A DNA stretch of 64,000 nucleotides from an uncultured Clostridia bacterium (GCA_947626555.1 CANQSP010000001.1:42-64041); one strand, 5' to 3'; positions 3,752 to 62,904 are shown, counted from the first letter of the stretch. Notes: generated by a model from the letters alone, not told the origin. Made by a program: numbers and translations.

Positions 3752-3837
3752 TTTTGGTGCATAAAATTATTATAAAAAAATCTAACTAATTTTAAAAAAT
3801 ATAAAAATTAAGTACAAAAAAGAGGAGGTAAACCTAA

Positions 3838-6724: not shown

Positions 6725-6989
6725 AACTATTAGGGACGGGGTTAAATAGTTTAGTGGTAATAATTTTAACTATAAAAGCAAAACATTAATATATTATTTA
6801 TTTAGTAACATTTTGTGGGGACCAGCAAATTATAGCTTGTAAAAAAATTTATTTTGTAAAACTTGTTTTGCATAAATAAATTTTTAAACAAGCTATTATG
6901 TAGCTGGGAGTTACTAAATAAATAATATATTCACGTTTTGCAATAGAGTAATTAAACCACTAAACTATTTAACCCCGTCCCTAATAGTT
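6725..6989. mobile_element. MITE-like element copy A (family 1, single TIR pair), flanked by TA/TA
   Basis: Perfect terminal inverted repeats AACTATTAGGGACGGGGTTAAATAGTTTAGTG ... CACTAAACTATTTAACCCCGTCCCTAATAGTT; palindromic interior; no ORF. Confidence 0.8.
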
Positions 6990-7038: not shown

Positions 7039-7088
7039 ACTAACATAGCAAACAAATATTTGCAGAAAATATTTTCGGAGGTATGTAT

Positions 7089-8717: not shown

Positions 8718-8981
8718 ACTATTAGGGACGGGGTTAAATAGTTTAGTGAATTGAATACTCTATTGCAAAACATTAATATATTATTTATTTAGTAACATTT
8801 TGTGGGAACTAGCAAATTATAGCTTGTAAAAAATTTATTTTGTAAAACTTGTTTTGCATAAATAAATTTTTTTTACAAGCTATTATGTAGTTGGGAGTTA
8901 CTAAATAAATAATATATTAATGTTTTGCTTTTATAGTTAAAATTATTTCCACTAAACTATTTAACCCCGTCCCTAATAGTT
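8718..8981. mobile_element. MITE-like element copy B (family 1), TA-flanked; its first bases complete the recN TAA stop
   Basis: Same TIRs as copy A; interior ~95% identical to A but with outer sub-segments swapped. Confidence 0.8.
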
Positions 8982-20600: not shown

Positions 20601-23600
20601 AAAATATGAAATATTAAAAGATAAGCCTATTATAAATACATTTAATGTAAGCAATATAGGAACAGATGTCAATATTTTAGTAGATGTACTAGATCCAGAT
20701 GATGCATTAAAAGAGACGGCAAAAGTCACAATAACAGACAATTCAAATGGAGAAGAATTATTTAATAGCCCAATTATAAAAGGTACAAATCATTATGAAT
20801 ATAAAGCAGAACTTAATAAAGAATATTTAATTAAAGTTATAAATGGATATGACTTGGATTCAAATGAACTAAATGTTGGAAGTGAAAACTTAAATGTATA
20901 TGAAGAACTATATACACAACAACTTTTAAAAATAGAGGATACGGCTAAATTTTCAGCAGTTCATGTAACAGTACCAAGTATTGTAACAGATGATGATGAA
21001 AACGTAATACTAACTTTTGAAAATGTATACCAATCAATTTATGATGTTAAAGAAGCTACTATAAATGGAATTCCATATACAGTCACAAAAGAAGATAATG
21101 TATACAAAGTAGTTTTAGAAAAAGGAGAAAAAGGTGACAATATATTAAAATTTACATCAGTAAAGCTTTCAAATGATTCTGTATTTGAAGTTAATAGAAA
21201 TATAAAATATTTATATGAAAATGTAAGACCAATAGCTGAAAATATAGAAATAAATGAAGTTCGTAGTGAAGATATGGTAAAAGCTACATTTACAGTTAAT
21301 GATAAAGATGAAGCAACTGAAAAACTATATGCAAGGTTATACAATAGTAATGGAGTTCAAATAGAAGAAACTGAATTAGACAAAAATGCTACAGAAGTTA
21401 GTTTCTCATTGCCAAAAGCATATAAATATAGTATTGATATTTTAGCTGATTATGATAAAGGTAATGGAACAAATTATGAAAAAATTGTAATTGGTTCTAA
21501 AGTTCACGAAGTTGGACCGGTTGTAGAAATAACTGAATTTAAAACAGAAGATAAAAAATTCTTTGAAAAAGATGAAGAAAACGTAAAACTTATATATAAA
21601 ATAAATACAAATATAGATGAGAATGTAAGACTATTTAGAATAAATGGAGTAACATATGATGCAGAAAAAATAGATACGGATACTTATAGAGTGTTATTTG
21701 ATGGTGTTGGAAATCAAGGAGGAACTTTAACTTTAGAAGTACAACAGATTGTATTTGAGAAGACAATGCATAAATTAGAAAACTATTATAAGTCAACTAT
21801 TGAAGTCTTGAGGCAAAAGCCAGAAGTTTCACAGGTAATAGCCGAAAATAAAGATGGCAAATTCGAACTATCATTTAAAATGAAAGATGATGATGAGGCT
21901 CTAACAGGAAACATTAATTTAAGAATACTAGACGAAGAAGAACAAGTTTATTTAGAAGAAAATATACAATTAAATGATAAACAATATAATAAAATTATAG
22001 ATAATTTACAATTTAATAAGGATTACAAGATAATTATAACTGCAAATTATGACTTAGATGGTGATTTAACAGGTAATGGTAATGAATATACAGGTGAGCA
22101 ACTTTTAGAACAAACAATTAAGGTTGAAAATAATATAGAGTACAACTTTAAATTTAGTGATTTTGGACTTATGACTCCAGATATGCCATTAGCATGGCCA
22201 GGATATCCATTATATTTACAATTTATAAGTACAAACGATTCTCAATATAAAGTAGACTCAATTGTTTTAAATGGAGTAGGATATAAAGTTGAAGAAATGT
22301 ATGGATTATATATGATATCAGAATATATTCCTGAAATAAAAAGTGGTATTCAAGAAGTTAAAGCAGAAAAAGTAATATTAAGTAATGGTAAAGCTTTTGA
22401 TATAAATGGTGAGGAAAATAAAGCTAAATTTGAAGTATTAAGAGATTATCCTAAGGCTAGTATTTTATCAATGACAGAAGATACAGAAAGAGGAAAACTA
22501 AAGATTGTATTTCAAATTCGAGATGATTTTAATACAATTAAGGATCCTACAGATATTAAAGTTTTAATATATAGTAGTGACTCAGATGAACCATATCAAA
22601 CCAAAAAAATCTCTATAGGTGATACAGAAGTTGAACTTGATACACCATTAGCCTCTGAATATGTTATAGAATTTTTAGCTGATGCTACAGTTTCAGAATT
22701 GATGCCTGAATATAACCAATTAAACTCTAAATTAGTTGAAAAAACATTTGAAGCTAAACAAAGTACTGTTATTACAGAAGTAAAACCAGAGACATATTAT
22801 CCTGAAAAAGGTGCAATTTTTGGAGTAAATTATAAGATTTTAACATTAAGTAAGAAAAAGGTAGTTGCAATAACTATAAATGGACAGAGAAGTATAGTTG
22901 ATGAAAATGGTACAAATACTTATAAAGCATGTCTTTCAGCAAATAATGAAGCAGGTTTAATGACATTTACAACATCTACAATAGAATTTGAAGATGGGTC
23001 AACAGTTGATTTTAAAGCAAGTGACCAAGTAGAAGTAATAAAAGAATTACCAATAATTACAAATCTTACAAGAACAGATAATTTTGATGAAAAATCTGCA
23101 ACATTTACATTTAATGTAGAAGATCCTGATGGAATAATAAATGAAGGTGGAACATTTAAAGGAAGTATTAATGGGCAAAATAAAGATTTAAATATTGGTG
23201 AGAATTCTATGACATTTACAAATCTAACGCCTAATGCCAATATAGAGTTCAATGTTATTGGTACTTATGATTTAGATACAAATGCATTAAATAGTGTTAC
23301 AGGAAAGAATGATAATAATCATATAGGAGATAAAATCTTTACAAGACAATTCTTATTTACTGAAAATAATGACTTATATAGAGTTACAAAACTAGAAACA
23401 CAAAAAAATAATAAACAAAATACTTATTTTGAAAAGGATGATGAAATAAGACTAAAATTTAACTTTATTTGGGTAGATGACACATATGTAGAAAAAGCAA
23501 AAGTTAACGGAGAAACTTATGATGCTTACAAAAATGGCGAAGATTATACTATTGTTTTAAATAAAATGACCGATGTAGGAATACATGAAATTAAATTAGA

Positions 23601-26600
23601 AAGCATTAAATTAAGCAATGGTAAAGAAATACCACTTAAAGAAAATAATATTGTAAAAATAGAAATACTAAAAGATAAACCTTCAATGAGTAAATTTAGT
23701 TTTAATGATAATGACAAAGATATTTCTTTAAATATTACTATATTAGACAAAGATAATGCTATTCCAGAAAACAATCAACTTGATATTGAAGTACTTGACG
23801 AAAATAATAAAAATGTTTGTTCTGAAAAATTAAATGTAGGAGAAAACACGGTTACATTTAATAAAAATGATAGTAATAGATATTTAATAAAAGTTATAGC
23901 TTCTTATGATAGAGATACAAATGAAATAGATCAAAACTCTAATGAAATTAAAAATGGTGAAATTGCATTTGAAAACATTAATATAAATGAACGTAAATAT
24001 GAATTAAAAGACATTACAAATATTGATGTATACCACTTCTCAGAAGACGGAAACGTTGAAAAGACTAATACTATAGAATATAGTAAAATAAATAGCTATA
24101 AAGAAACTTATATAGTAAAAGTAGAAATGAAATCTCTACCATCATATTATGGAAAGATAGAAGAATATAGGAATGAAAATGGTAAATTAGTATTTACTCT
24201 AAGTAATGAAAATATAATTTTATACAATAATGATGAACCAACTGAAAAATGTGACATAGTTTATGGAACAATAGTAGGTGATATAGCTACTAAAGAAGAC
24301 ATCTATTCTTTAAATGATAGTAGTCCAGAAGGACTATATATTCCTGATTATAATAGAATTAGCAAATTACAAGGATTTAGTACAGAGAAACATAAATTAT
24401 ATCATAACTTAAATAAATTAATGCCATTTTATGATTCTAAATACTTAGTAAGAGACGGAGAAAAAATAGAAAAAGAAAATATATTAAATACAAAACTAAT
24501 AAAAGAAGTAATTCCTGTAAATAAAAATGGTGAAGCGGTTATTGCAGTTTCAACAGATGATTACCAAAATTTATCAAGCATAAAAGTAATATTTGATGAT
24601 GACGAAATGAAAAAATATAATATTGAGTTTAATGAATATTATAGTGGAATAGCATCATATATTATTCCAGAACTAGGAATTGAATATAACTATAATAATT
24701 ATGTTATAAAATCAGATGCTAGAATTATAAAGGATTTAAAAGATACAATAAGTAAATTCAACTATAGAACTGATTTAGATGTATTAACAGCAGATTTAGA
24801 TAGTAGAATTTATAGAGAATATTACGAAGATACATTAAAACAAGAATTTGATGATTTTATTAAAAAATTATTAGTTAGCAAAAATTATAGTGTAGTAATA
24901 GAAAGTGATACCTATAACGAACTAATTAAAAAGGACTTATTAAGTGAAACAACTTTAATGAAATGGATATATGCATACAATTATATTCATCGTTGGTATT
25001 CTTTCGATATAGATGGCTTAAAGATGAGTGATATACTTGTATTTAAAGGTAATTTATTAAATAAACCTACAACAATAGAAAGCATATCTCAAGATGTTTT
25101 AAGCGGAAATATAACTACCTATTCAACAGGAGAATTCTATAAAAATAAATTAGCACAATACACAGGACAACAAGATGTATTTGAATTTGTAAAATATTAT
25201 GTGCAAAAATATGCGGAAGACAAAAATATAGAGACTTGGTATAGAGATAATGTTCCAGGTATAGTTGTAGAAGCACAATGTATAAATAAAGAAGTACAAT
25301 ATTCACTATGGCATAATTTAAGTATAAATGTAGGAAAGTATAATAAATATGTACTTGTACTTCTAACACTTCCAGATGATGCAGCATATATAATTTCAAA
25401 TCCAACATCTATATTGTTCGGATCTCAAAGAACATACGTACAAAATCCTAAAGATCCAGTACAAAGAGCTAAGTTACAAGCATTAGCTGATAGTTTTGCT
25501 AATGATGTATCAAAATTCTTCTCAACACTTTCAACATTTGTATCAATTGAAGAGATGAATAGAATGAGTACGGTGCATTTAGATACATTATTAACATATG
25601 TTGATGGAGGTACTGGTTCAAGAGTTGTTCAAAAACCTTTAACGACACAAGAGCCATTCCATAAAAACTTCTGCGAAGTTTTAAATGATTGGACAATTTT
25701 GAAAGGAGCTGGAGCATACTGTGGCGGAGGTAGTGTATACTTTGTTTATGAAGATGCATTACGTGCATACTCAGTATGGACTCATGAAAATGCACACTTA
25801 GGAGCATTCCAGAATTTGCTATGTGGTGGATGCAGAAATAGAATTATAAGAGAAGATATGCCTGATGGAAATATAACGCAAGGTTCAGGAGATGGTGGAA
25901 TAAGCTTTAACTTAACTTATGATTATGACAAAAATGCTTTAGTTACTACAAATTTAACAACGGAAAGAATAAATACTCCTGAAAAAATGAAGCAATTCTA
26001 TAGCAGATTGATAGATACAAGTGATTTCTTAGATTATATTGAAGCTAAAGCATTCTTACAGTTAAATGCTGAACAACAAGCTAAATTATGCTTACAAGTG
26101 TCTTATCCGAAAGGATCAGGTCAATATATAGATGGAGAAATAACTAAATACGAAAAAATAGATAAAGAAAAAATTGAAGCAATGCATTTAGATGATGTTC
26201 ATGATTTATGGACAAATCAAATAGTAATGGTGCCTGGTGTAACAGAAAGAACAATGACACCAAGTCTGTATGGAGGAGATTCAATATACACAAGACATTG
26301 GTATCAACCATATAATGACAATGGTAGAGCTGATTCATATAGTTTTAAATGGTTAGCATTTGAAATGATTGCAACAGGAGGATATAAGGAGGGCTATAGA
26401 TATTGGTATGGTAGCAACGGAGGAAAAATAAAAAATGATTTACAATCATTAAGAGCAATTACTAAAAATGAAAATATGACATTTGAACAATATAAAATAG
26501 ACAGATATAATAAGATGCAGAATAACTGGGAGAATATGAAATTCTTTGATGCAACTGAAGTACAAAAAGAATACTTAGAAGCATTAAAGAAAGATGCAGA

Positions 26601-28215
26601 AGAAAATGATAATAAACTTACAAATAGTACAGCTGTTAAAAGAAAATATTATTATATGGTAAAACAAGGAACAGATGATTTTAGACAAGAGATATTTGAC
26701 TATGTGCCAGAAAAAGTTGAATCTAAAGAGTATGTTTCTACAGCAAAAGAATTTGTTGATGCATGTAAATTAAAATCAAGTAGCACAATTTACTTAGAAA
26801 AAGATATTGATTTATCTGAATACGATACAGGAAGTGCTATTGTAACAAATGCATTTACTGGAACAATTGAAGGTCAAAATAATACAATAACAGGACTTAA
26901 ATTACCATTATTTGCATCATTGTCAGGGGCAACTGTTAAAGATTTAATTATAGACGATTCTACTATAATTATAAATAGTACAGATATAGGAGCATTAGCT
27001 AAAACAATGACAGGAACAGAGTTAAATAATATTACTATTAAAGGTTTATTAATGAGTTCTAAAAATAACAAACAAGTGGGTGCTTTAGTTGGTTCTGCTT
27101 ATAACTCAAATATTAAAGATTGCCATGCTATTAATGTAAATGTATTTGGTTCAACTAGAACAGGAGGACTTATAGGATATGCTGTAAATAATTGTACTAT
27201 TGAGGAGAGTACTTCGAATGCAACAGTAACAGCTACAGCTGATGCAGCGGCAGTACTTGTAGGAGAGTGCAACAGTTCAACTATAAAAAATTGCTATGCA
27301 ATTGGAAGTATTAATGTATCTAGTGCAGCAAATTATGCAGGTGGAATTGTAGGCTGGGCTGATGGCACATCTATACATAATAATTATGCTAAAGTTTCAG
27401 TATCTGCAGTTAAGAGTAATTCGGGTGTATTTAGTGGTACTATTAGAAATAAATTTGATGTTCAAAATAATATTGCTATAGCAAACGGACTTTCACATGT
27501 TAATATAGGGCTATTCGATAACGATACTGAAGCAAGTAAAATGAATAGTAGTGATACATTTAAAAATAATTATGAAATAGCAAATGGATTTACAGGTAAA
27601 ACAAGTAGTGCAAGAGGAGTAAAAGCAGAAAAAATTAAATCAATGACAATACAAGAACTTACAAAGGAATTCATGCAAGAAAATTTACATTGGGATGAAA
27701 AAATATGGAACTTGGATTCTCTTGAGGAAGGTGGCTTACCAACATTAAGAAATCACGATCCAAATAAATCAGAGAGTGCATTAATATTAATGAATGAATC
27801 TAATAAATTAGATTCACTAGATGAGTTAAAAGTTAATGATGAAGAAGTTGTGAATACTATTGAAGACACAAACATAGTCGACACTAATACGCTAAATACA
27901 GCAAATGAAATAAATAATACAAATATGCTAAATGAGGCAAATGAGACAAATGAAATAAATAATACGAATGTGCTAAATGAAGCGAGTACGACGAATGAAA
28001 TAAATAATACGAATATGCTAAGTGAAGCAAGTACGACGAATGAAATAAATAATACGAATATGCTAAGTGAAGCAAATACGACGAATGAAATAAATAATAC
28101 AGATATTCTAAATGAAAAGAATACAAACAACATAGTAGATAGCAATACTTTGGAAGAGAAAAGCGAAAATGAAGTAATTAGTGATACAGTTAATAGTATA
28201 GAAACAACTGAATAA
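14638..28215 (+). CDS. giant (4525-aa) multidomain surface protein: signal peptide, cohesin-like domain, two TM helices, type-I dockerin, P/N-rich linker, ~13 tandem ~290-aa modules, HExxH zinc-metallopeptidase (M26/IgA-protease-like) region with GLUG-type Gly-rich repeats, C-terminal 15-aa tandem repeats
   Basis: MKKITFFLITMILSLAVATSVNA signal (probable start ATG 14650); DVNKDGKVDYDD / DINKDGQITIGD Ca-loop pairs; recurrent ...VLKDKP...YDLD module boundaries; WTHENAHLGAF; GGLIGY/GGIVGW/GALVGS repeats; single uninterrupted ORF. Confidence 0.85.
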   Translation: MMENMKKITFFLITMILSLAVATSVNAVENIELKTSKDKVNLGEEIIVSLDLNIENKEETSLYAYTAKLSYDKDVFEVIDESDFEESENWSDITYNKRNNKFALINKKGETDESILKIKLKVRKNATPGNTSITVNSITASDGKKDIPIEGKTVDVMVIKTGLAEGESIPLNKTNEVVEDTSNIEVGKDFSWIAYILIALIIVIFIFTIYYYISSKKRNTSKNKRITIMVASIIILVILLITTIILLTDKKADVNKDGKVDYDDTKDIIEYLLEIKNPQEDENLSDKDINKDGQITIGDVAASTNQATNQDYHANVNGSNNNSNTNGSTNNQSSEANASKPNNPSNSTNPSEPSNPNEPSNPSGSTNPNEPSNPTNPTEPSNPANPNEPDNPDNPNIPSEPTKPDNPNTPSDPTKPDNPNTPSEPTKPEEQYSSVVETTTVSNLTPKKGQEITLDLYIDVTPYTEIEAIEIEGKSYKVTKVEEPSVRIASLVPVKFKAIASNINGGENNHYKVTIQAPTSAGVQDIHITKIELDNGKKVSIDYSVKVDVLKDAPKVNDFYIDDKNEIPEISFNIEDSDGAFKGGKFSITDVDGNVVFVSENIKVGKNTFSANLEDGKTYHYDLVADYDLDHDYFAENIAPNHREEKDFIDDIIEDEEGNLEFTREYNFLSKNMMITPEVSSEDELILSFENGAESYYKVTYVKVNGVEYEVKLENGKYITKLKKGSKGNNTITVESVKLENGHIFTVNQTFSYVYLKDKPTIGDIEVKLEEGNLHVSAPITDQDNTIKSVQVKIKDQNGNVIKTEKLNKNSNNGLYLNDIEIDVSGKYTVEVEVTYDLGNGKENKVSKIYAKNITEPIKATILKEQSSMAEYATRGKKVEAIYTIEDNTEKEVTHITINGVKIPATKLSDEKYKVEFLAPSERPQNGKTTIIASELYYKDEVEPIEVECAFEIEILKSVPTIEDLHINDSREKPEINFVLVDAENAFISGKIIITDENENKVTEIEMSLIDTENGIQTYTLDNIEQGKGYEISIEATYDLDIDRTNNKNEETKIIKTHKFKIEKDYEFTLSDFKFINIENEKVTLQFTSTNKTEYIIEKVEIELNGIRHEYKVIKNGDNYTIEIPLTDINNTRTELTLEEVILSNLKEFNRETDFELFSSLEKQVIFKNKPTATIGNVIVNEEETQIIVSNISIEDTDNALLSDKLTVQLRDINGTVVDSKNISRTDTAVTFDYNKAGDYKVVIVADYDIVDLQNHTNEEIAQSSIITIHIKAEIINSEFNKYPNKKEQMTIKYTIKDNTNKDVTAIYFNDIRVDAVKLGEDLYEVVYIAPTEHGKKSITASELYYGEEEVDVVDKNDEIDVLKDKPIISNFKVVTAGDKPKATFDIIDTDNSFVDGKIIIKNKANDSIKEVIIVKNDTGIITEYELEIDSFEQYEVKLQINYDLDSNILPSQGENDNVGILEQVIEIVEDIQPSKLQINDLKLKEVNEEQETITLEFTSKNPSKHHIAKVKLEGKEEEFYVTYDEASDTYTLVLPYNNGEKETITIEKVILDNDTQDEVILEEKASIELFKTKPTVQELRATYNKETKVISATLLIKDTDNIVTKAYAKVICPDGEEKTQEEVTLENKSGEVTFENITKAGTYKVEILADFNALDGKIHNSETLELEDNVTDEVYVEIKVNAVSTIELSNKYPEKGGTVQVTYNIEDNTDEKITAIEYGATHIANNLEEIDGNYKAILGEEFTAQAGVSTLKITKIHYGDKIIDVTHEGDKIDVLKEKISFNENTFTSTENLEKSTVAFTFDIINPDNAIIDGTASVGESIQNFSKAQNTLIFNVEKNKTLELLIKVNYDRDTNTIVEDENKNVETLTVVKEFSLDEDMEFDITDIYTSKVNTETLQETNTQYFNKGEEFRVNFKTATNSALKVSYVTIGGTKYNAQEINSEANIEEVEGYYAIVKASESEKGVKELNIDSVTLSDGKVITLENKNLKYEILKDKPIINTFNVSNIGTDVNILVDVLDPDDALKETAKVTITDNSNGEELFNSPIIKGTNHYEYKAELNKEYLIKVINGYDLDSNELNVGSENLNVYEELYTQQLLKIEDTAKFSAVHVTVPSIVTDDDENVILTFENVYQSIYDVKEATINGIPYTVTKEDNVYKVVLEKGEKGDNILKFTSVKLSNDSVFEVNRNIKYLYENVRPIAENIEINEVRSEDMVKATFTVNDKDEATEKLYARLYNSNGVQIEETELDKNATEVSFSLPKAYKYSIDILADYDKGNGTNYEKIVIGSKVHEVGPVVEITEFKTEDKKFFEKDEENVKLIYKINTNIDENVRLFRINGVTYDAEKIDTDTYRVLFDGVGNQGGTLTLEVQQIVFEKTMHKLENYYKSTIEVLRQKPEVSQVIAENKDGKFELSFKMKDDDEALTGNINLRILDEEEQVYLEENIQLNDKQYNKIIDNLQFNKDYKIIITANYDLDGDLTGNGNEYTGEQLLEQTIKVENNIEYNFKFSDFGLMTPDMPLAWPGYPLYLQFISTNDSQYKVDSIVLNGVGYKVEEMYGLYMISEYIPEIKSGIQEVKAEKVILSNGKAFDINGEENKAKFEVLRDYPKASILSMTEDTERGKLKIVFQIRDDFNTIKDPTDIKVLIYSSDSDEPYQTKKISIGDTEVELDTPLASEYVIEFLADATVSELMPEYNQLNSKLVEKTFEAKQSTVITEVKPETYYPEKGAIFGVNYKILTLSKKKVVAITINGQRSIVDENGTNTYKACLSANNEAGLMTFTTSTIEFEDGSTVDFKASDQVEVIKELPIITNLTRTDNFDEKSATFTFNVEDPDGIINEGGTFKGSINGQNKDLNIGENSMTFTNLTPNANIEFNVIGTYDLDTNALNSVTGKNDNNHIGDKIFTRQFLFTENNDLYRVTKLETQKNNKQNTYFEKDDEIRLKFNFIWVDDTYVEKAKVNGETYDAYKNGEDYTIVLNKMTDVGIHEIKLESIKLSNGKEIPLKENNIVKIEILKDKPSMSKFSFNDNDKDISLNITILDKDNAIPENNQLDIEVLDENNKNVCSEKLNVGENTVTFNKNDSNRYLIKVIASYDRDTNEIDQNSNEIKNGEIAFENININERKYELKDITNIDVYHFSEDGNVEKTNTIEYSKINSYKETYIVKVEMKSLPSYYGKIEEYRNENGKLVFTLSNENIILYNNDEPTEKCDIVYGTIVGDIATKEDIYSLNDSSPEGLYIPDYNRISKLQGFSTEKHKLYHNLNKLMPFYDSKYLVRDGEKIEKENILNTKLIKEVIPVNKNGEAVIAVSTDDYQNLSSIKVIFDDDEMKKYNIEFNEYYSGIASYIIPELGIEYNYNNYVIKSDARIIKDLKDTISKFNYRTDLDVLTADLDSRIYREYYEDTLKQEFDDFIKKLLVSKNYSVVIESDTYNELIKKDLLSETTLMKWIYAYNYIHRWYSFDIDGLKMSDILVFKGNLLNKPTTIESISQDVLSGNITTYSTGEFYKNKLAQYTGQQDVFEFVKYYVQKYAEDKNIETWYRDNVPGIVVEAQCINKEVQYSLWHNLSINVGKYNKYVLVLLTLPDDAAYIISNPTSILFGSQRTYVQNPKDPVQRAKLQALADSFANDVSKFFSTLSTFVSIEEMNRMSTVHLDTLLTYVDGGTGSRVVQKPLTTQEPFHKNFCEVLNDWTILKGAGAYCGGGSVYFVYEDALRAYSVWTHENAHLGAFQNLLCGGCRNRIIREDMPDGNITQGSGDGGISFNLTYDYDKNALVTTNLTTERINTPEKMKQFYSRLIDTSDFLDYIEAKAFLQLNAEQQAKLCLQVSYPKGSGQYIDGEITKYEKIDKEKIEAMHLDDVHDLWTNQIVMVPGVTERTMTPSLYGGDSIYTRHWYQPYNDNGRADSYSFKWLAFEMIATGGYKEGYRYWYGSNGGKIKNDLQSLRAITKNENMTFEQYKIDRYNKMQNNWENMKFFDATEVQKEYLEALKKDAEENDNKLTNSTAVKRKYYYMVKQGTDDFRQEIFDYVPEKVESKEYVSTAKEFVDACKLKSSSTIYLEKDIDLSEYDTGSAIVTNAFTGTIEGQNNTITGLKLPLFASLSGATVKDLIIDDSTIIINSTDIGALAKTMTGTELNNITIKGLLMSSKNNKQVGALVGSAYNSNIKDCHAINVNVFGSTRTGGLIGYAVNNCTIEESTSNATVTATADAAAVLVGECNSSTIKNCYAIGSINVSSAANYAGGIVGWADGTSIHNNYAKVSVSAVKSNSGVFSGTIRNKFDVQNNIAIANGLSHVNIGLFDNDTEASKMNSSDTFKNNYEIANGFTGKTSSARGVKAEKIKSMTIQELTKEFMQENLHWDEKIWNLDSLEEGGLPTLRNHDPNKSESALILMNESNKLDSLDELKVNDEEVVNTIEDTNIVDTNTLNTANEINNTNMLNEANETNEINNTNVLNEASTTNEINNTNMLSEASTTNEINNTNMLSEANTTNEINNTDILNEKNTNNIVDSNTLEEKSENEVISDTVNSIETTE
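15655..15930 (+). repeat. ~18-bp tandem repeats encoding PSNP(N/T)EP linker
   Basis: ccaagtaatccaaacgaa-type units, in-frame inside giant gene. Confidence 0.7.
27904..28128 (+). repeat. five 45-bp tandem repeats encoding NEINNTNMLSEASTT
   Basis: Near-identical 45-bp units at C-terminus of giant gene. Confidence 0.8.
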
Positions 28216-33549: not shown

Positions 33550-33790
33550 AAGTTGTATAATTAAAGTACAATATAGAATAGTTATTTGAGGTGGTAAATT
33601 GTGTCAACCACGCACCCTATGGGTCAAAAGAGATGTAGGAAATGATACACCTACCAAATAACTAACAATCGAAAAAAGGGCTATGGAAACATAGCTCTTT
33701 TACTTATTTTACAACATTATAAATTTCTTCAAACACTGCTGGTCTTTTAGAATAGTCTTGTCTTTAGCTATTGACAACATATTGGTACGT

Positions 33791-52728: not shown

Positions 52729-53994
52729 ATGAAAGACTATTTAGGAATAGAAGACGTTAAGGCTATGGAGGTATTTGATTCAAGAGGAAATCCTACGGTT
52801 CAAGTAGAGGTAGTAACAGAAGGAGGATTTTCAGGTGTAGCAATAGTTCCATCAGGAGCATCAACAGGAAGTTTCGAAGCTATGGAATTAAGAGATGGTG
52901 ATGAAAGATTAAATGGAAAAGGAGTTCAAGTTGCAGTAAATAATGTAAATAAAAAAATAGCAAAGGCACTAAAAAAAATGAATGTGTATGAGCAAAGTAG
53001 AATAGACAGAATTTTAATAGATTTAGATGGAACGGAGAATAAAGAAAAATTAGGAGCAAATGCAATACTTGGAGCATCAATAGCTGTTGCAAAAGCAGCA
53101 GCAAATTCTTTAGGAATGAGCTTGTATAAATATTTAGGTGGAACAAATGCTAAAATATTACCTACCCCAATGATGAATATATTAAATGGGGGAAAACATT
53201 CAGATAATAACATAAGCATTCAAGAATTTATGATTATGCCTGTTAGTGGCAAAACTTTTAGAGAAAAGTTAGAAATGGGAGTAGAAGTTTATCATACTCT
53301 AAAGAAGATTTTAAAAGAAAAAGGATATAGTACAGCGGTTGGAGATGAAGGGGGTTTTGCACCAAACTTAGAAGGAGAAGAACAAGCGATAGAATTGTTA
53401 GTGGAAGCAATAGAAAAGTCAGGTTTTATTCCTAAAGATGACATTGCTATAAGTTTAGATATAGCAAGTACAGAAATGTATGATGAAGCAAAAAAAATAG
53501 GAAAAGATGGATATTACTTTTGGAAAAAAGATATCTTTAAAACAAAGGAAGAAATGATAGATTATATAGTAAATTTGACAGAAAAATATCCAATAATTTC
53601 AATAGAAGATGCTTTAGCAGAAGAAGATTGGGAATCATGGAAAATATTAACAGAAAGAATAGGAAACAAAATTCAATTAGTTGGTGATGATTTATTTGTT
53701 ACAAATACAAATAGATTACAAAAAGGAATAAATAATAAAGTAGCAAATAGTATATTAATAAAACCAAATCAAATTGGAACAATAACGGAAACATTAGATA
53801 CGATAGAGTTAGCAAAGAAAAATGGTTATACAACAGTAATATCTCATAGGTCAGGAGAGACTGAAGATACAACAATAGCCGATGTTGCAGTAGCTGTAAA
53901 TAGTGGTCAAATAAAGACAGGTGCTCCGTGTAGAACAGATAGAGTGGCTAAATATAACAGATTGCTAAATATTGAAGCAGAGCTAAACTATTAG
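52729..53994 (+). CDS. eno: enolase
   Basis: [15 protein letters not shown]..., SHRSGETED; stop TAG lies inside MITE copy C TIR. Confidence 0.95.
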
Positions 53995-54314
53995 GGACGG
54001 GGTTAAATAGTTTAGTACAACTATTAATTTATAAAGAGTTAAACTATTAGGGACGGAGTTAAATAGTTTAACAACTTAATTGTTATATAGCAAAACATTA
54101 ATATTATATATTTTGAAGTGATTCGTGGGGACCGTTTTAGAAAATGTTACGAACATGTGTGAGTTACATTTTCTTAAATGGGGCAACGCAAAAATATATA
54201 ATATTAAGGTTTTGCAAGTAATATGATTTAAATTTTGTTAAACTATTTAACTCCGTCCCTAATAGTTTAATTAAAAAATAAGTGCTAAACTATTTAACCC
54301 CGTCCCTAATAGTT
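53986..54314. mobile_element. MITE-like element copy C (family 2: nested, double TIRs), TA-flanked
   Basis: Outer TIR AACTATTAGGGACGGGGTTAAATAGTTTAG + inner TA-flanked element with TIR AACTATTAGGGACGGAGTTAAATAGTTTAAC; palindromic core with GTGGGGACC. Confidence 0.8.
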
Positions 54315-54421
54315 TAGCAAAATAATAAAATTGTGTTGAATATTGTATAATTTTGTAATATACTAAATAAAGAATTTGCGATACAATTAGTTTATCAAAC
54401 TGTGAAAGGAATGTTAAAATA

Positions 54422-56308
54422 ATGACAGAAAAGATATTGGATCAAATAAATGAGCCAAAAGATTTAAAAAAATTAGATTATACACAGAAGAATAAACTAG
54501 CAGAAGAAATACGAGAAGAAATAATAAACACTGTGTCAAAAACGGGAGGGCATCTGGCTTCTAATTTAGGAGTTGTAGAACTTACCATAGCATTACACAG
54601 TGTATTTAATATGCCAGAAGATAAAATTATATGGGATGTAGGGCATCAGACATATGTTCATAAGATTTTGACTGGAAGGAAAGATAAACTAGGAACTTTA
54701 AGGCAGTTAGATGGAATGGCAGGATTTCCAAAGTCAAAAGAATCTGAATATGATAGTTTTAATACAGGTCATAGCAGTACATCTATTTCAGTTGCTTTAG
54801 GAATGGCAAGAGCAAGAGATTTAAAAAAAGAAGAAAACAACATTGTCGCTGTAATTGGAGATGGTGCATTAACTGGAGGTATGGCATTAGAAGCATTAAA
54901 TGATGCAGGTAATAGTGAAACGAGGTTAATAATTGTTTTAAATGACAATGAAATGAGTATTTCTAAAAATGTTGGTGGTATTTCTACTTTTTTAACAAGA
55001 ATAAGAACAAGGAAGTTTTATAAAAAATCTAATAACTTTGTAAGAAAAATTTTAGAAAAAATCCCTAAGTTCGGTCCATTTGTTATAAGATTTGCAAGGA
55101 AAATAAAATATAGTTTAAAGCAACTTATGATTCCTAATATGTTTTTCGAAGATATAGGATTAAAATATTTAGGTCCAGTAGATGGTCATGATATAGAAAG
55201 AGTAGAATGGATTTTAAACTTAGCAAAAAAAGAAATTGGACCAGTCTTAGTACATATTATAACTAAAAAAGGAAAAGGATATAAACCAGCAGAAGATAAT
55301 CCAGACAAATTTCATAGTACTTCTAGTTTTGATATAAAAACAGGAAAAAGTAAAAATGAAAAGAAAAAGGATTATTCAGAAGTATTTGGAAATAAATTAG
55401 TAAAGCTTGCTAAGAAAAATAAAGATATTGTTGCTATAACAGCTGCTATGACTGATGGAACAGGTCTTTCAAAGTTCAAAAATGAATTTCCAAATAGATT
55501 TTTTGATGTTGGAATAGCAGAACAACATGCAATAACAATGGCAGCAGGGCTTGCAAAAGCTGGATTAAAGCCTGTAGTATCAATATATTCATCATTTTAT
55601 CAAAGGGGTTATGATCAAATAATACATGATGTATGTATTCAAAATTTGCCAGTGGTTCTTTGTGTAGATAGAGCAGGTATAGTAGGAAATGATGGAGAAA
55701 CACATCAGGGAATTTATGATTTATCATTTTTTAATATAGTTCCAAATTTAACTATTATGGCACCAAAGGATTTTGAAGAATTAGAACAAATGCTTGAATT
55801 TGCATTAAGTTTAAATTCACCTGTAGTTATTAGATATCCAAGAGGTGGAGAAGAGGCACAAAAGTTTGAAAAGCACGATAGAGTAGAATTGGGAAAGTCA
55901 GAAATTTTAGATAAAATAAAAAATAAAGAGCATATCAAAAGTACTAAAGCAACTATATTAGCAATAGGAAAAATGGTAGCAAGGGGAAAAGAAGTTGCAG
56001 AACAGTTAAAAGAAAAAAATATAGAAGCAGAACTTATAAATGTTAGATTTTTAAAGCCAATAGATGAAGAAACAATAAAAAAATCAATAGAAAAGACAAA
56101 AAGGGTAATAACTATAGAGGATAATATAATAAAAGGTGGATTAGGAGATGAGGTAAAGAATATTATATGTAAAAATGAAATAAAGGATGTAAAAATAAAA
56201 TGTTTTGGTTATCCAGATGAATTTATAAAGCATGGAAGTATGCAGGAGTTAGAGAAAATTTACGGATTAGATAAAGAAAGTATATTACAAGATAAAATAT
56301 GGGAATAA
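54422..56308 (+). CDS. dxs: 1-deoxy-D-xylulose-5-phosphate synthase
   Basis: GGHLASNLG, GDGALTGG TPP motifs; 628 aa. Confidence 0.95.
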   Translation: MTEKILDQINEPKDLKKLDYTQKNKLAEEIREEIINTVSKTGGHLASNLGVVELTIALHSVFNMPEDKIIWDVGHQTYVHKILTGRKDKLGTLRQLDGMAGFPKSKESEYDSFNTGHSSTSISVALGMARARDLKKEENNIVAVIGDGALTGGMALEALNDAGNSETRLIIVLNDNEMSISKNVGGISTFLTRIRTRKFYKKSNNFVRKILEKIPKFGPFVIRFARKIKYSLKQLMIPNMFFEDIGLKYLGPVDGHDIERVEWILNLAKKEIGPVLVHIITKKGKGYKPAEDNPDKFHSTSSFDIKTGKSKNEKKKDYSEVFGNKLVKLAKKNKDIVAITAAMTDGTGLSKFKNEFPNRFFDVGIAEQHAITMAAGLAKAGLKPVVSIYSSFYQRGYDQIIHDVCIQNLPVVLCVDRAGIVGNDGETHQGIYDLSFFNIVPNLTIMAPKDFEELEQMLEFALSLNSPVVIRYPRGGEEAQKFEKHDRVELGKSEILDKIKNKEHIKSTKATILAIGKMVARGKEVAEQLKEKNIEAELINVRFLKPIDEETIKKSIEKTKRVITIEDNIIKGGLGDEVKNIICKNEIKDVKIKCFGYPDEFIKHGSMQELEKIYGLDKESILQDKIWE

Positions 56309-56502
56309 CTCTATGCAATATAATGAAATTAATGCAATATGCTATAAGAGAAGGCGAATTTTGGACTGAAAAAACATAAATAGTAATTAAAAATTTAAAA
56401 AAGTATAATCAATAATAAAGTAATGAAAAATTGAAAAATCAAAATAAAGTAATATATTAGAGAAATTTTATATTAAAAGAAGATGATAATAAGAGGTAAA
56501 TT

Positions 56503-57300
56503 ATGGATTGGAAAAAAGATGACAATCAATTCTTAATGTCAAAAATAATAGATAAATTTAATCTTTGTGAAACTAGAAATAAAGTAGAAAATACAGATTT
56601 TTTAGATGAAAATCAAAAGCAATTAGTATACAATTTTTTACAATCTCAAAAATATAGGCACTATTTGTTTTATGGAGGTATAGAAAATGCTGAACGAAAT
56701 GTGCTTATAGTTTTTCCAGATAAATTGGAACGAGTTATTGAAAATGATGAGTTTGATTTTAATAATATTCTGGATGCTATAAGAATACAACTTCCAAATG
56801 AGTTGTATGGTAAATATGTTCATAGAAATTATTTAGGTGCACTAATGAAATTGGGAATAAAAAGAGAGAAAATAGGAGATATAGTTGTTAAAGAAGATGG
56901 GGCAGATATAATATTAAGTAAAGATATTACAAAGTTTGTATTAATTAATTTAGGTGAATTAATAAGATTCAAGAAAGCACAAATTACTCAAATAAAGTTA
57001 CAAGAAATAAGAATTAATGTAGTAGTTAAAGAAGTATTTCAAATTACAATTCCATCTATGAGACTAGATAATATTGTTTCGGAATTAATTAATTCTTCTA
57101 GAAGCAAAGCTGTTGAATTAATTTTAAATGAAAAGGTTTTTATAAATTATGAAGCAATAACAAAAACTTCAAAGGAAGTAAAAGAAAATGATAAAATTAC
57201 AATTAGAGGAAAAGGAAAATTTGAAATATTAGAAATAATGGGAAGTACAAGAAAGAACAAAATAATTTTAAAGGTATCACAAATTGGTGGAAAACAGTAA
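56503..57300 (+). CDS. S4-domain RNA-binding protein, YlmH-like
   Basis: C-terminal S4 fold (MRLDNIVSELINSSRSKAVELI); 265 aa. Confidence 0.6.
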   Translation: MDWKKDDNQFLMSKIIDKFNLCETRNKVENTDFLDENQKQLVYNFLQSQKYRHYLFYGGIENAERNVLIVFPDKLERVIENDEFDFNNILDAIRIQLPNELYGKYVHRNYLGALMKLGIKREKIGDIVVKEDGADIILSKDITKFVLINLGELIRFKKAQITQIKLQEIRINVVVKEVFQITIPSMRLDNIVSELINSSRSKAVELILNEKVFINYEAITKTSKEVKENDKITIRGKGKFEILEIMGSTRKNKIILKVSQIGGKQ

Positions 57301-57380
57301 AAATTTAAATGATTGATTTTAGGTTATAAAAAAATAAGCAAGATGTGAATAACAAAAGAAAATAAAGGGGGTATTTAAGA

Positions 57381-58982
57381 TTGAAAACTAAGTATATTTT
57401 TGTAACAGGAGGGGTTGTATCAGGATTAGGAAAAGGCATAACTGCGGCATCGTTAGGAAGGTTATTAAAAAATAGGGGATATAAGGTAGTAAATCAAAAA
57501 TTTGATCCATACTTAAATGTAGATCCTGGAACAATGAGTCCATACGAACATGGAGAGGTTTTTGTTACAGATGATGGCGCTGAAACAGATTTGGATTTGG
57601 GACATTATGAAAGATTTACTGATGAAAATTTAACAAAAAATTCAAGTATAACTATGGGAAAAATTTATCAAAATGTATTAGAGAGAGAAAGAAGAGGAGA
57701 TTATTTAGGTAAAACGGTTCAAGTAATTCCACATGTTACAAATGCTATAAAAGAGAAAATATATGCTTTTGAAAAAACAGATGTAGATATTGTAATAACT
57801 GAGATTGGTGGAACTGTAGGAGATATTGAAGGATTATCTATTATAGAGGCAATAAGACAAGTTGGAATAGAAAAGGATGTAGAAGATGTAATATATGTTC
57901 ATGTAACTTTATTACCATATATAAGTGGTTCAAATGAATTAAAATCAAAGCCAACTCAGCATTCTGTAAAAGAATTGCAATCTTTTGGAATAAAGCCAGA
58001 TATATTAGTTTGTAGAACAGAAGTTGATATACCAGATAATTTAAGAGAAAAAATAGCATTATTCTGCAATGTTAGGAAAGAAAGCGTTATAGCAAACAAA
58101 ACGGCATCTTGTTTATATGAGGTACCAATATTATTAGAGCAAGAAGGGTTAGCAAAAGAAGTTTGTAAACATCTATGCTTAGAAAAATGTGAGCCACATA
58201 ATGAAAAGTGGGAAGAAATGTTAAGTAAAATAAAAAATGCTTCTAATAACAAGATAAAGGTTGCGATAGTAGGAAAATATGTAAAGCTGGAAGATTCATA
58301 TTTGTCTGTTGCAGAAAGTTTAAAACATGCTGGTTTCGAAAATGGAGTTAATGTAAAGGTAGATTTTATAGATGCTGAATTAATAACTTCTAAAAATGCA
58401 AAGGATAAGCTAAAAGATTATTCAGCTATAGTAGTTCCTGGAGGTTTTGGCAATAGAGGAATAGAAGGAAAAATTCAAACTATAAAATATGCAAGGGAAA
58501 ATAAAGTCCCATTTTTAGGAATATGTTTAGGAATGCAAATGGTAGTTGTTGAATTTGCAAGAGATGTATTGAAATTAAAAAATGCAAATTCTGAAGAATT
58601 TGACGAATTATGTGAAGACCCAGTTATACATATAATGTATAGTCAAAAAGATGTGACTAAAAAAGGTGGTACTATGAGGCTTGGAAGCTATCCTTGTGTA
58701 ATAAAAAAAGGAACTCTTGCAGAAAAAGTATATAATCAAATTGAAATAAATGAAAGACATCGCCATAGATTTGAATATAATAATGATTATAAAGAGAGAT
58801 TAGAAGAAGCGGGATTAAAATGTTCAGGTGTATCTCCTGATGGCACTTTAGTAGAAATGGTAGAGCTAGAGCAGGACAAGCACCCATTCTTTATTGCAAG
58901 TCAATTTCACCCAGAATTTAAATCAAGACCAGATAGACCAGCGCCTCTTTTTGTAGGGTTAATAAAAGCTTGCTTGAAATAA
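57381..58982 (+). CDS. pyrG: CTP synthase
   Basis: TTG start after AAAGGGGGT; [17 protein letters not shown], glutaminase GICLGMQ. Confidence 0.95.
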
Positions 58983-59073
58983 AAAAGTTGAGTAAATATC
59001 CAACGTTTTTCAAAATGAATAAAAAACACCAAATTTGGAAATTATATTTTCAAGAAGAGGTGTTTTTATTTAT

Positions 59074-59778
59074 ATGAGAAAAAAAATAAAACAGAATTTT
59101 AAGAAAAATTTGAGATGTATAATAATATTAATTATGTTATTTGTAATGTTTATATCTTATAATGTATTTTTTAGAAATGACGAGATATATGCTCTTTCTA
59201 AATATGGTTCAAGAGGGTCAGAAGTAACACAAATACAAACAAAACTTAAAAGATGGGGGTATTATTCTGGAAGTATAGATGGAATATATGGAAGTAAAAC
59301 ACTAGAAGCTGTAAAATATTTTCAAAGAAAAAATGGTCTCACAGCAGACGGAATAGCTGGAACAAAAACGCTACAAGCAATGGGTATATATACATCATCT
59401 AATACAAGTTCTTCATCAAGTACAAACTCAAGTAATTTAAATTTGTTAGCAAGATTAGTGTATGGAGAATCAAGAGGAGAACCATACTCAGGTCAAGTTG
59501 CAGTAGCAGCGGTTGTATTAAATAGAGTGAAAAGTTCAAATTTTCCTAATACAATTTCAGGTGTAATATATCAATCAGGTGCTTTTGATGCTGTATCAGA
59601 TGGACAAATAAATTTGTCACCAAATAGTACAGCTATAAAAGCAGCTCAGGATGCTATAAATGGTTGGGATCCATCTTATGGAGCAATTTATTACTTTAAT
59701 CCAGCAACAGCCACCAACAAATGGATTTGGTCAAGACCTGCAACTGTAACAATAGGCAGACATAGATTTTGCAAGTAA
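59074..59778 (+). CDS. sleB: spore cortex-lytic enzyme SleB-like (signal/TM + PG_binding_1 + Hydrolase_2)
   Basis: YGSRGSEVTQIQTKLKRWGYYSGSIDGIYGSKTLEAVKYFQRKNGLTADG (PG-binding), ARLVYGESRGEPYSGQVAVAAVVLNRV (SleB domain); stop TAA shared with MITE D end. Confidence 0.8.
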   Translation: MRKKIKQNFKKNLRCIIILIMLFVMFISYNVFFRNDEIYALSKYGSRGSEVTQIQTKLKRWGYYSGSIDGIYGSKTLEAVKYFQRKNGLTADGIAGTKTLQAMGIYTSSNTSSSSSTNSSNLNLLARLVYGESRGEPYSGQVAVAAVVLNRVKSSNFPNTISGVIYQSGAFDAVSDGQINLSPNSTAIKAAQDAINGWDPSYGAIYYFNPATATNKWIWSRPATVTIGRHRFCK

Positions 59779-60106
59779 ACTATTAGGGACGGGGTTAAAT
59801 AGTTTAGCACAATTAGTAATTTATAAAGAGTTAAACTATTAGGGACGGAGTTAAATAGTTTAACAAAATTTAAACTATATTACATGCAAAACATTAATAT
59901 TATATATTTTTGCGTTGACCCATTTAAGAAAATGTAACTCACATATGTTCGTAACATTTTCTAAAACGGTCCCCACGAATCACTTAAAAATATATAATAT
60001 TAATGTTTTGCTATGTAACAATTAAGTTGTTAAACTATTTAACTCCGTCCCTAATAGTTTAATTAAAAAATAAGTGCTAAACTATTTAACCCCGTCCCTA
60101 ATAGTT
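59778..60106. mobile_element. MITE-like element copy D (family 2, nested); inner segment inverted relative to copies C and E
   Basis: Outer TIRs/spacers co-linear with C, inner ~260 bp is reverse complement of C interior. Confidence 0.8.
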
Positions 60107-60170
60107 TAGTTGACAAAGCAGTACATAAATGATAAAATGAAACGGAATTTAAGAATAGTTGGAGGGCTAA

Positions 60171-61498: not shown

Positions 61499-62575
61499 AT
61501 GAATCCAAACATAAAGTGGTTAAGAGAAAAGATGAAATTATTAGATATGCAAGGAGCAATAATTTCAAATCCAGTAAATATAAGATATTTAACAGGAATA
61601 GTTGCAGAGGGAATATTGTTAATAACTAGAAAGGAAAATATATATTTAACGGATGGGCGTTATACAGAAGCTGTAAATAGTGTGCTAACAGTAGATGATG
61701 AAATTATAGTACATGAATTTAAAGATTTTTCAAATGATGAATATGAAAATTTCTTTCTTTTTTGTGAAAACGTAGGATTTGAAGGCGATTATGTGACATA
61801 TAATGGTTATAGAAACTTTATGCAAAGATATAAAATAAATAATCTTCAAGAGATGGAAAAAGTAATAGAAAAGCAAAGAATGATAAAAGATTCTGAAGAA
61901 ATAGAAAAAATAACAAAGGCTTGTGAAATTACAGACGAATGTTTTAAACATTTATTAGATTTTATAAAAATTGGAAAAACAGAAAAAGAAATTGCTATAG
62001 AAATAGAAACATATTTTAAAACTCATGGAGCAGATGGAGTATCATTTGATCCTATAGTAGCTTCAGGTAAAAATTCATCAAAACCGCATGCAGTACCTAC
62101 AGATAAAAGGATAGATTTAGGAGATGTAATAACAATAGATATGGGGTGCAAATATGAAGGTTATTGTTCAGATATGACAAGAACAATATTTGCAGGTTAT
62201 ATTCCAGAAGAAACCAAAAAAATCTATGATTTAGTATTAGATAATCAATTAAAAGTACAAGAAGAATTAAAAGAAGGAGCAAATGTTAAGACACTTACTA
62301 AAATGGTGGAAAGTTCATTTGAAGAAAACAATTATTCTTTAGTACATAGTTTAGGACATGGAGTAGGATTAGATATACATGAATATCCTTATTTAGCAAA
62401 TAAAAATGATTTTTTATTAAAAGATAAAATGGTGGTAACAAATGAACCAGGAATATATATACCAGAAAACTTTGGAGTTAGAATAGAAGATACTGTTTTA
62501 ATTACAAAAAATGGTTGTATAAATTTAACCAAATCAGACAAAAATTATATTATAGTAGATAAACAGCTAAACTAA
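61499..62575 (+). CDS. Xaa-Pro aminopeptidase / M24B family peptidase
   Basis: HSLGHGVGLDIHE, NEPGIY, RIEDTV metal ligands; ATG 61499 after AAGAAGGTG; stop TAA completed by MITE E. Confidence 0.85.
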   Translation: MNPNIKWLREKMKLLDMQGAIISNPVNIRYLTGIVAEGILLITRKENIYLTDGRYTEAVNSVLTVDDEIIVHEFKDFSNDEYENFFLFCENVGFEGDYVTYNGYRNFMQRYKINNLQEMEKVIEKQRMIKDSEEIEKITKACEITDECFKHLLDFIKIGKTEKEIAIEIETYFKTHGADGVSFDPIVASGKNSSKPHAVPTDKRIDLGDVITIDMGCKYEGYCSDMTRTIFAGYIPEETKKIYDLVLDNQLKVQEELKEGANVKTLTKMVESSFEENNYSLVHSLGHGVGLDIHEYPYLANKNDFLLKDKMVVTNEPGIYIPENFGVRIEDTVLITKNGCINLTKSDKNYIIVDKQLN

Positions 62576-62904
62576 TAGGGACGGGGTTAAATAGTTTAGC
62601 ACTTATTTTTAAGTTAAACTAATAGGGACGGAGTTAAATAGTTTAACAACTTAATTGTCATATAGCAAAACATTAATATTATATATTTTTAAGTAGTTCG
62701 TGAGGACCGTTTTAGAAAATGTTACAGACATGTGTGAGTTACATTTTCTTAAATGGGGCAACGCAAAAATATATAATATTCATGTTTTGCAAATAGTATA
62801 AATAAAATTTTGTTAAACTATTTAACTCCGTCCCTATTAGTTTAATTGTTACTTTATAAATTACGAATCGTGCTAAACTATTTAACCCCGTCCCTATTAG
62901 TTTA
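62570..62904. mobile_element. MITE-like element copy E (family 2, nested); all four TIR copies carry the CTAATAGG variant
   Basis: Left AACTAATAGGGACGG / right CCGTCCCTATTAGTT and inner TIRs share the same TATT->TAAT change. Confidence 0.8.

Follow-up and report, generated by a model that had tools for sequence, protein, structure and literature searches.

What moves a family of nested, TA-flanked inverted repeats, and whether the inner segments of its nested copies invert within populations, are the questions raised by a 64,000-nucleotide stretch of DNA from an uncultured Clostridia bacterium (GCA_947626555.1 CANQSP010000001.1:42-64041; hereafter the window, with positions counted from its first letter). 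Five copies of the repeat, A to E, lie in this window, and a preliminary description made from the sequence alone had taken them for miniature inverted-repeat transposable elements (MITEs). We assign them instead, with a probability of about 0.72, to REPIN-like hairpin elements of a RAYT/TIRYT system (RAYT, a tyrosine transposase associated with repetitive extragenic palindromes, REPs) rather than to MITEs of the IS630 type. This reading is preferred because the repeat units of the family bracket a gene for a Y1 transposase and because homologues of that gene carry flanking repeats with the same GGGAC motif.

The conserved unit of the family is 27 bp long (AACTATTAGGGACGGGGTTAAATAGTT) and consists of a 7-bp stem (AACTATT/AATAGTT) and the loop AGGGACGGGGTTA. 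A search of 712 kb for inverted unit pairs more than 330 bp apart found a single bracketed gene, a 252-amino-acid open reading frame (ORF; contig L054, 4806-5936). Its product matches Pfam Y1_Tnp (1.7e-13), and its best NCBIfam model is REP_Tyr_transpos (NF047646, REP-associated tyrosine transposase) at 66 bits, compared with 23 bits for the IS200 model. HUH and YxxxNPV motifs were found in the protein, which aligns with Escherichia coli TnpA-REP (4ER8) over the HUH and tyrosine motifs (E = 0.015). An ortholog with 85% identity, P0002, is present in samples that hold the strain of the window, at a position outside the window; it lies between fhs and groES, with a perfect unit on either side (L090 3758-4937, units at 3758 and 4911). 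The preliminary label of MITE, in the sense of an element moved by a DDE transposase, is therefore not retained, the sole gene bracketed by the units being that of a RAYT-like HUH transposase of the Y1 family.

Beyond P0002, relatives in the protein database reach at most 48% identity. One of them, P0007 (45% identity), retains the gene order xse-fhs-RAYT-groES-groEL, and two other homologues have a dnaE-RAYT-ychF locus in common. Such shared loci indicate long vertical inheritance of the RAYT-like gene, to judge from gene order, and in the genome fragments examined it is single-copy at one syntenic locus. Insertion sequences of the IS200/IS605 kind lack terminal inverted repeats, have unlike sub-terminal hairpins at their two ends and carry their transposase in many copies. 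Such an element was rejected as a description of the gene and its borders, given ends that are identical inverted units, the low score with the IS200 model (23 bits) and the conserved locus.

All five distant homologues examined (5/5; 42-46% identity) are flanked by inverted repeats with a motif of the same GGGAC(G/A)G type, which reads AGGGACGG in the lineage of the window, GGGGACGG in L098 and AGGGACAG in L095 and L099. The flanking repeats, by contig, are as follows.

L097: AAAGATGATTTT-AGGGACGGGGGTA-AAAATCATCTTT; the stem is different and the loop almost identical (one extra G).
L098: GGGGACGGAG; ...GGGGACGGAGCAA.
L095: ...TTTAGGGACAGGCCCC.
L094: ATTTTAGGGACGCCCT...
L099: CCAATTAGGGACAGTCCCTAATTGG, related to CAATTGGGGACTGTCCCCAATTG; at 2730, 6872, 7409 and 8297, flanking the gene and dispersed at two more places in the locus.

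The sequence CAATTGGGGACTGTCCCCAATTG is itself a second, fully palindromic repeat type in a sister metagenome-assembled genome (MAG), where it stands beside a degenerate unit (L047, about 7100-7140).

In the window, the 31-mer of the preliminary description, searched with up to three mismatches, matches 16 times against 0 expected, and a looser core pattern recovers the identical 16 units and no extra one. These units group into five elements, each with TA directly outside both ends (5/5). They are listed below, whole elements without strand and inner elements with their strand.

Copy A, 6725-6989: simple 265-bp element; units 6725-6751 and 6963-6989; internal inverted repeat CAAAACATTAATAT; core with GTGGGGACC; TA-flanked.
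Copy B, 8717-8981: simple 265-bp element; core oriented as in A, sub-terminal arms swapped.
Copy C, 53986-54314: two-tier composite of 329 bp; outer units 53986-54012 and 54288-54314; outer spacers 54013-54041 and 54268-54287.
Inner element of C, 54042-54267, plus strand: 226 bp; GGAG-variant units 54042-54068 and 54241-54267; TA-flanked; GTGGGGACC on the plus strand.
Copy D, 59778-60106: composite of 329 bp; outer shell co-linear with that of C; outer units 59778-59804 and 60080-60106.
Inner element of D, 59834-60059, minus strand: 226 bp; reverse complement relative to the inner element of C (218/226).
Copy E, 62570-62902: composite of 333 bp; outer units 62570-62596 and 62876-62902; architecture of D in the opposite genomic orientation.
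Inner element of E, 62617-62842, plus strand: 226 bp; strand orientation as in the inner element of C (210/226).

C, D and E thus each hold four units in the order ++-- and consist of a 226-bp element lying within the central TA of an element of about 100 bp. The nesting, with inner elements that have TA flanks of their own, had been correctly recognised in the preliminary description, which gave the inner segment as ~260 bp; it measures 226 bp, with 172 bp between its units. The inversion claimed for D stands in part. Its inner element is inverted relative to those of C and E, but the match to C is 218/226 and not exact, and the shell of E, taken to be co-linear with that of D, is reversed, with the short arm on the left and the long arm on the right. 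As the whole of E matches the reverse complement of the whole of D (304/333), shell included, D and E share one architecture and C alone has the other relative orientation. Two finer details were borne out: the TATT-to-TAAT change reported for the terminal repeats of E is present as AACTAAT in 4/4 of its units, and the arms of A and B correspond crosswise (left arm of A with the reverse complement of the right arm of B, 26/27; right arm of A with that of the left arm of B, 18/22) around a co-linear core (128/135).

As single strands, both kinds of element are predicted to fold tightly, C at -97.4 kcal/mol (z = -20.8) with two stacked stems and A at -82.6 kcal/mol (z = -17.3). The G-runs GTGGGGACC and ATGGGGCAAC lie on one strand in the cores of both long size classes (54118-54126 and 54203-54212; 6815-6823); unable to pair with each other, they give an otherwise palindromic element a strand asymmetry. 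A structured-RNA gene was considered and rejected, since an Rfam scan of the window at gathering thresholds and scans of C and A by E-value fitted no family and returned only weak, spurious eukaryotic matches.

The wider family was collected by scanning for the unit core in one genome per species, which gave at least 79 loci, almost all from three rabbit-gut MAGs named "uncultured Clostridia bacterium". The genome of the window is none of these three but that of a sister species, syntenic with them at 82-96% nucleotide identity. Family counts cover the listed loci and the window (80 sequences, 642,063 bases, ~0.64 Mb). They include at least 251 unit matches and at least 115 unit groups; 58 of these groups are simple pairs and 24 are nested composites, the others being solo or truncated units. 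By length, the simple elements form classes of 64-65, about 100-139, about 180-190, 224-232, 243-248 and 262-270 bp. Among the composites, 19 are short-in-short (203-231 bp) and five are 226-in-short (329-338 bp; C, D, E, L007 and L030). Many MAG contigs end inside the repeats, with a unit within about 100 bp of the contig end in L036, L050, L063, L071, L032, L045 and others, which makes the family a major source of breaks in the assembly of these genomes. One match among those listed does not come from the rabbit-gut Clostridia MAGs: in a Sedimentisphaerales MAG (L020 725-765), GTCCCTATTTAACTCC, containing the unit core, occurs twice in tandem, either by chance or perhaps as a related motif of a different phylum. 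A scan of JGI metagenomes with the unit pattern gave 0 matches.

What is constant in the family is a stem of roughly 33 bp, and everything interior to it varies, the cargo between units ranging from 10 bp to 1.1 kb. TA is found outside 105/106 units and, invariantly, on the inner side as well (106/106). The next base outward is a pyrimidine on the left and a purine on the right, the two being complementary in 80/104 cases, and inward about four further bases pair. Unit pairs are perfectly complementary in 98/106 cases across about 15 unit variants; arm mismatches total 10, whereas 2000 shuffles average 134 and not one of them (0/2000) comes down to 10. Variation within the unit is limited to positions 5-8 and 15-20, whereas GGGACG at positions 9-14 has changed once in 212 units. 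The two arms of an element therefore vary together, a co-variation for which templated copying of one arm from the other is the best explanation, selection for pairing being the alternative.

Single units also stand alone. Solo 27-bp units with TA on both sides are found at L045 5663-5689/L053 667-693, L065 799-825/L035 5921-5947, L074 7301-7327 and L054 6440-6466, often at stop codons, and some are conserved at orthologous sites of two species; they either persist or remain after partial excision. Stand-alone relatives exist for both tiers of the composites, at 0.87-0.94 identity for inner elements and a weaker 0.63-0.80 for outer shells (the L063:1133/L015 group), which shows that the nesting is real and that the shell family is usually occupied. 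We also considered whether the TA used in nested insertion lies in an apical loop; when the 24 reconstructed outer shells were folded it was fully unpaired in 7/24 and in a hairpin loop in 6/24, the apical region being weakly structured, so that the idea is not supported in this form.

The insertion target is YTAR, and at the ortholog of the A site L079 has no element and TA only once. TA on both sides of an occupied site and one TA at the empty site would fit either a target duplication or an element that carries one TA itself. The elements are concentrated at gene ends: among those with enough flanking sequence, 44/73 lie directly against an ORF end (ORFs of 100 codons or more), compared with 2.9% of random TA sites. 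In 33 cases a TAA stop is made by the flanking TA and the first A of the element. The first base of B (8717) doubles as the final A of the TAA that closes ORF 7083-8717, and that of D (59778) finishes the TAA of ORF 59035-59778. C and E lie a few codons ahead of the ORF end, and there the unit provides the stop. An element end can in fact restore or provide a stop in two of three frames, as TA+A = TAA or as xTA AAC TAT TAG (TAA in the AAT variant). The examples in the window are:

8715-8717, stop at B.
59776-59778, stop at D.
53986-53994, stop at C.
62570-62575, stop at E.

A repeat that inserts into stop codons and restores them matters when gene ends are annotated in such MAGs. Enolase, at C, has its two final residues apparently altered (AELAK to AELNY).

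Orientation differences extend well beyond the window. In the 226-in-short class, C agrees with L030 in relative orientation, and D, E and L007 are all of the opposite kind; among short-in-short composites, L004 and L015 differ from L029 and L072:5298. Clear orientation calls are confined to the 226-in-short and the L004/L015/L029/L072 classes: when short-in-short composites were clustered automatically on the identity of their inner parts, AT-rich and near-palindromic sequence made for weak discrimination and 15 were lumped together, so this grouping was discarded. When cores were set to one orientation, the arms were found in both arrangements in the 226 family (L007 versus L027/L017/L018; L076 versus L078) and in the 262-270 family (A versus B; L014 versus L035), so that the internal inverted repeat CAAAACATTAATAT is a further place of flipping.

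The same differences are seen at orthologous sites. At the E site, L017:4296 (226 bp) and L013:2738 (227 bp) share their flanks and both have AACTAAT units, but lie in opposite orientations (0.66 identity in the same and 0.96 in the reverse orientation). Further flipped pairs are L025:1904/L033:2285, L005/L051 and L014:2492/L047, and five orthologous pairs have no flip. The ortholog is the closest of all copies in two of the flipped pairs and the second closest in one, which favours inversion in situ over replacement, as far as sequence similarity can tell. Flipping between inverted repeats is real and recurrent over evolution; together with the complementarity of the arms (98/106), this bears out the recombination or concerted evolution that had been proposed for the family.

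Content changes from site to site as well. The E site holds a composite in the window and simple elements in both sister species; the composite L004:1558 corresponds to a simple element, L042:433, that is 94% identical to its inner part; the D site has three different structures among orthologs; and the 265-bp element at the B site is replaced in L079 by a 227-bp element of the other size class. The forms without a shell are chimeric in their unit variants: in L017 the left unit is of the outer type and the right unit of the inner type, and L042 has outer-type units around an inner-type interior, which fits the loss of the shell arms by deletion between directly repeated units. Downstream of groEL in the strain of the window, the same site has a 263-bp element in one sample (L092 5294-5556) and a 165-bp near-perfect palindrome in another (L090 7207-7371), which has lost the core and whose left arm now complements the right one; at about 5x coverage, either conversion between the arms or a fold-back in assembly would explain it.

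How far this material favours a RAYT-linked origin has to be weighed against movement by a DDE transposase. Some bacterial MITEs derive from IS630/Tc1, RUP of Streptococcus pneumoniae being one, and Correia/NEMIS is a further TA-duplicating MITE, for which we know of no transposase. An IS630/Tc1-mariner enzyme encoded elsewhere would bind the 27-bp terminal inverted repeats (TIRs), insert at TA in CTAG or TTAA and duplicate the TA; the RAYT gene would be cargo and the nesting self-insertion. This remains the main rival because TA on both sides, a single TA at the empty site and a YTAR target whose flanks are complementary (80/104 at position 3) form a signature classic for that group. The perfect TIRs with variable cargo, the length of 60-340 bp and the intergenic position next to gene ends are also like those of IS630/Tc1 MITEs, and units so often at gene ends could bracket some gene by chance.

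Several observations weigh against our own interpretation. Besides the signature just described, with its 27-bp TIRs and palindromic YTAR, the units have no 5' GTAG as in canonical REPs, and canonical Y1 elements make no duplication. The RAYT-like protein falls below the NCBIfam curated cut-off (66 versus 80 bits), and no significant helix-turn-helix (HTH) was detected by Pfam in the C-terminal 105 residues of its ~110-residue C-terminal extension; PF13545 or PF13412 is present in a small number of homologues. In the outer half of the stem, variants are uncompensated within the unit, so a small hairpin of the single unit is weakly supported. Paralogues are nearly as similar as orthologues, and inversion and replacement are thus not fully separated. 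Finally, the search covered fragments of the genomes, so a DDE partner may lie elsewhere.

The balance is tipped by the bracketed gene. A DDE origin of the IS630 type was our first reading, from the TA/CTAG pattern, and was set aside as the main one once a RAYT was found between units. The sole gene bracketed in 712 kb is a Y1 transposase of the RAYT kind and is bracketed at the same locus in two species, and chance capture does not account for the inverted repeats of the same motif around 42-46% homologues in other Clostridia. No DDE gene lies beside any unit in these 712 kb of genome fragments, where the Y1 HUH gene is found instead. The inner TA (106/106) and the TA-flanked solo units are not expected of IS630 ends, and arm co-variation is a further difference from IS630/Tc1 MITEs. 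We therefore regard an IS630-type origin as unlikely.

Two known systems come close to the REPIN-like reading. In REPIN-RAYT systems, REP doublets form hairpins, and a Y1 gene flanked by the same units is single-copy and vertically inherited (Bertels & Rainey 2011, PMC3116915; PMC5581495). The family resembles them in its palindromic units paired in inverted order into long hairpins with a variable spacer and compensatory arm changes, in its high extragenic copy number and in a Y1 transposase gene flanked by the same units. It differs in that the unit begins with AACT instead of 5' GTAG and has TA on both sides, in interiors of 10-240 bp against a fixed spacer, in two-tier nesting against tandem clusters, in a low-GC clostridial host rather than a proteobacterium, and in a protein below the RAYT cut-off.

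In TIRtrons or TIRYTs, equivalent to RAYT Group 1 or subclass 2.1, the gene is flanked by TIRs and not by GTAG REPs (Di Nocera 2013, PMC3733652; Quentin 2018, PMC6006769). Their repeat consensus is GGGGWSAS, Group 1 has been reported in Clostridia, amplification is moderate or absent, and subclass 2.1 is without REP-like sequences near the gene (PMC3733652, PMC6006769). A RAYT-like gene between TIRs other than GTAG REPs, a G-rich motif (AGGGACGG/GGGGACGG) and the dispersal of some repeat families as singles, dimers and groups are common to both. Here, by contrast, about 250 units in about 0.64 Mb amount to strong amplification; AGGGACGG, GGGGACGG and AGGGACAG are similar to GGGGWSAS but not an exact fit; no C-terminal HTH (Bac_DnaA_C, HTH_23 or HTH_28) was detected; and nesting, flipping and stop-codon targeting are without published description. 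Three of these studies infer the mobilisation of REPINs by RAYTs and do not demonstrate it, and their well-populated systems are proteobacterial (PMC3116915, PMC5581495, PMC6006769). A clostridial RAYT-like gene with a very large, young-looking population of cognate units is of interest here, as a legible anatomy of TA-bounded units, solos, doublets, composites, shell-less forms, co-variation and flips constrains the mechanism to cutting at TA beside a GGGAC hairpin and arm-templated copying.

From this anatomy we infer catalysis by the RAYT-like protein, cleavage at TA, a single-stranded intermediate and a route of flipping. The enzyme would recognise the GGGAC unit on single-stranded DNA and cut and join at the adjacent TA, so that any TA-bounded module could be excised and then placed at YTAR, very often where the first A would remake a stop codon. 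The chemistry of IS200/IS605 elements, as in IS608, offers the analogy for the handling of TA: an occupied site with TA on both sides and an empty one with a single TA could arise in this way without a true duplication. Cutting at TA could also account for the inner TA, the solo units, the loss of shells and interiors indifferent to cargo. In C, D and E a 226-bp member would have entered the central TA of a member of about 100 bp, after which such composites would have spread whole. Differences of orientation (C versus D and E; the arms of A versus B) would reflect recurrent segment flips over evolutionary time, whether by recombination or template switching between arms, by hairpin-templated copying, or by excision and re-insertion at the same TA. 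One arm may be copied from the other by quasipalindrome template switching or hairpin-primed synthesis, in which case the arms would always share a variant.

A bolder version of this mechanism can be put forward tentatively, in which the lineage would have a highly active Firmicute REPIN-RAYT system with a mechanism of a distinct type. A Y1 nuclease like those of Group 1 or the TIRYTs might cut single-stranded DNA at the TA on either side of each 27-nt GGGAC unit, with every module (solo unit, doublet, interior alone, outer shell arm or whole composite) open to being excised, swapped, nested and re-joined either way; an arm might be re-copied as in parvoviral flip/flop hairpin transfer, and isomers might still be produced within populations. 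In parvoviruses the flip/flop isomers of the terminal hairpins are made by an HUH nuclease during hairpin transfer. The likeness lies in an imperfect palindrome present in two reverse-complement forms, an HUH nuclease and arm copying that keeps complementarity, but linear viral ends and rolling-hairpin synthesis differ from internal chromosomal elements, and the comparison is an analogy only. This version is possible, although we hold it to be doubtful; if true, it would give a sequence-level handle on how RAYTs move REPINs, a question since 2011.

The preliminary description had further suggested phase-variable inversion at single loci. In a programmed switch of this kind, a site-specific recombinase or the RAYT would flip the inner segment of C, D or E at high frequency within the population and so control neighbouring genes. 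Inverted repeats do bound the flipped segment, and flips are frequent between closely related species. At one contig end, moreover, the right flank of C is joined to an inner element of the opposite orientation (L080 1-290, ENA ERZ27249684 NODE_3078, versus window 54032-54320). The other samples compared hold the same strain (L080 has 100% identity to the window over 9669 bp). The inner element at the end of L080 is exactly that of D, single nucleotide polymorphisms (SNPs) included. It comes after a stretch of 74 bp in which C and D do not differ, and coverage is about 5x; a repeat-induced misjoin is the probable cause, or otherwise a real conversion or flip.

Elsewhere the two loci keep their orientation. 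L086/L088, from another sample, have an identical C, and L089, from a third, has C in an unchanged orientation; D is exact in L080, and a partial copy in L082 matches it. Promoter-like sites in C and D occur in the numbers seen in shuffled sequences, with no terminators, and the gene downstream of D is served by a promoter of its own that lies beyond the element (60110-60138). There is no recombinase among the neighbouring genes in the gene tables of the window, nor an Rfam match, and flips spread family-wide over many unrelated loci argue against locus-specific regulation. A promoter switch of the fimS/hin type was rejected on these grounds (no adjacent recombinase, promoters at chance level and mostly fixed orientations in other samples). 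Phase variation is thus unsupported, and a switch at C, D or E seems very improbable.

Mis-orientation of segments between inverted repeats in short-read assembly graphs, which the 4-5x coverage of the source assemblies, the suspicious end of L080 and the 165-bp palindrome of L090 (263 bp in L092) might suggest, is hardly credible as the source of the flips, given inverted repeats of 33-36 bp that would be shorter than typical short reads, eight SNPs between C and D reproduced exactly in independent samples, and similar flips in three MAGs at many loci, each with its own substitutions.

Apart from the repeats, the window has a G+C content of 27.7% and Clostridia-type housekeeping and sporulation genes. 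A skipping-rope RNA (Rfam RF02924) lies at 33581-33662 on the plus strand (74.7 bits versus a gathering score of 36.7), and a single ORF of 4525 codons at 14638-28215, also on the plus strand, probably encodes a giant surface or repeat protein.

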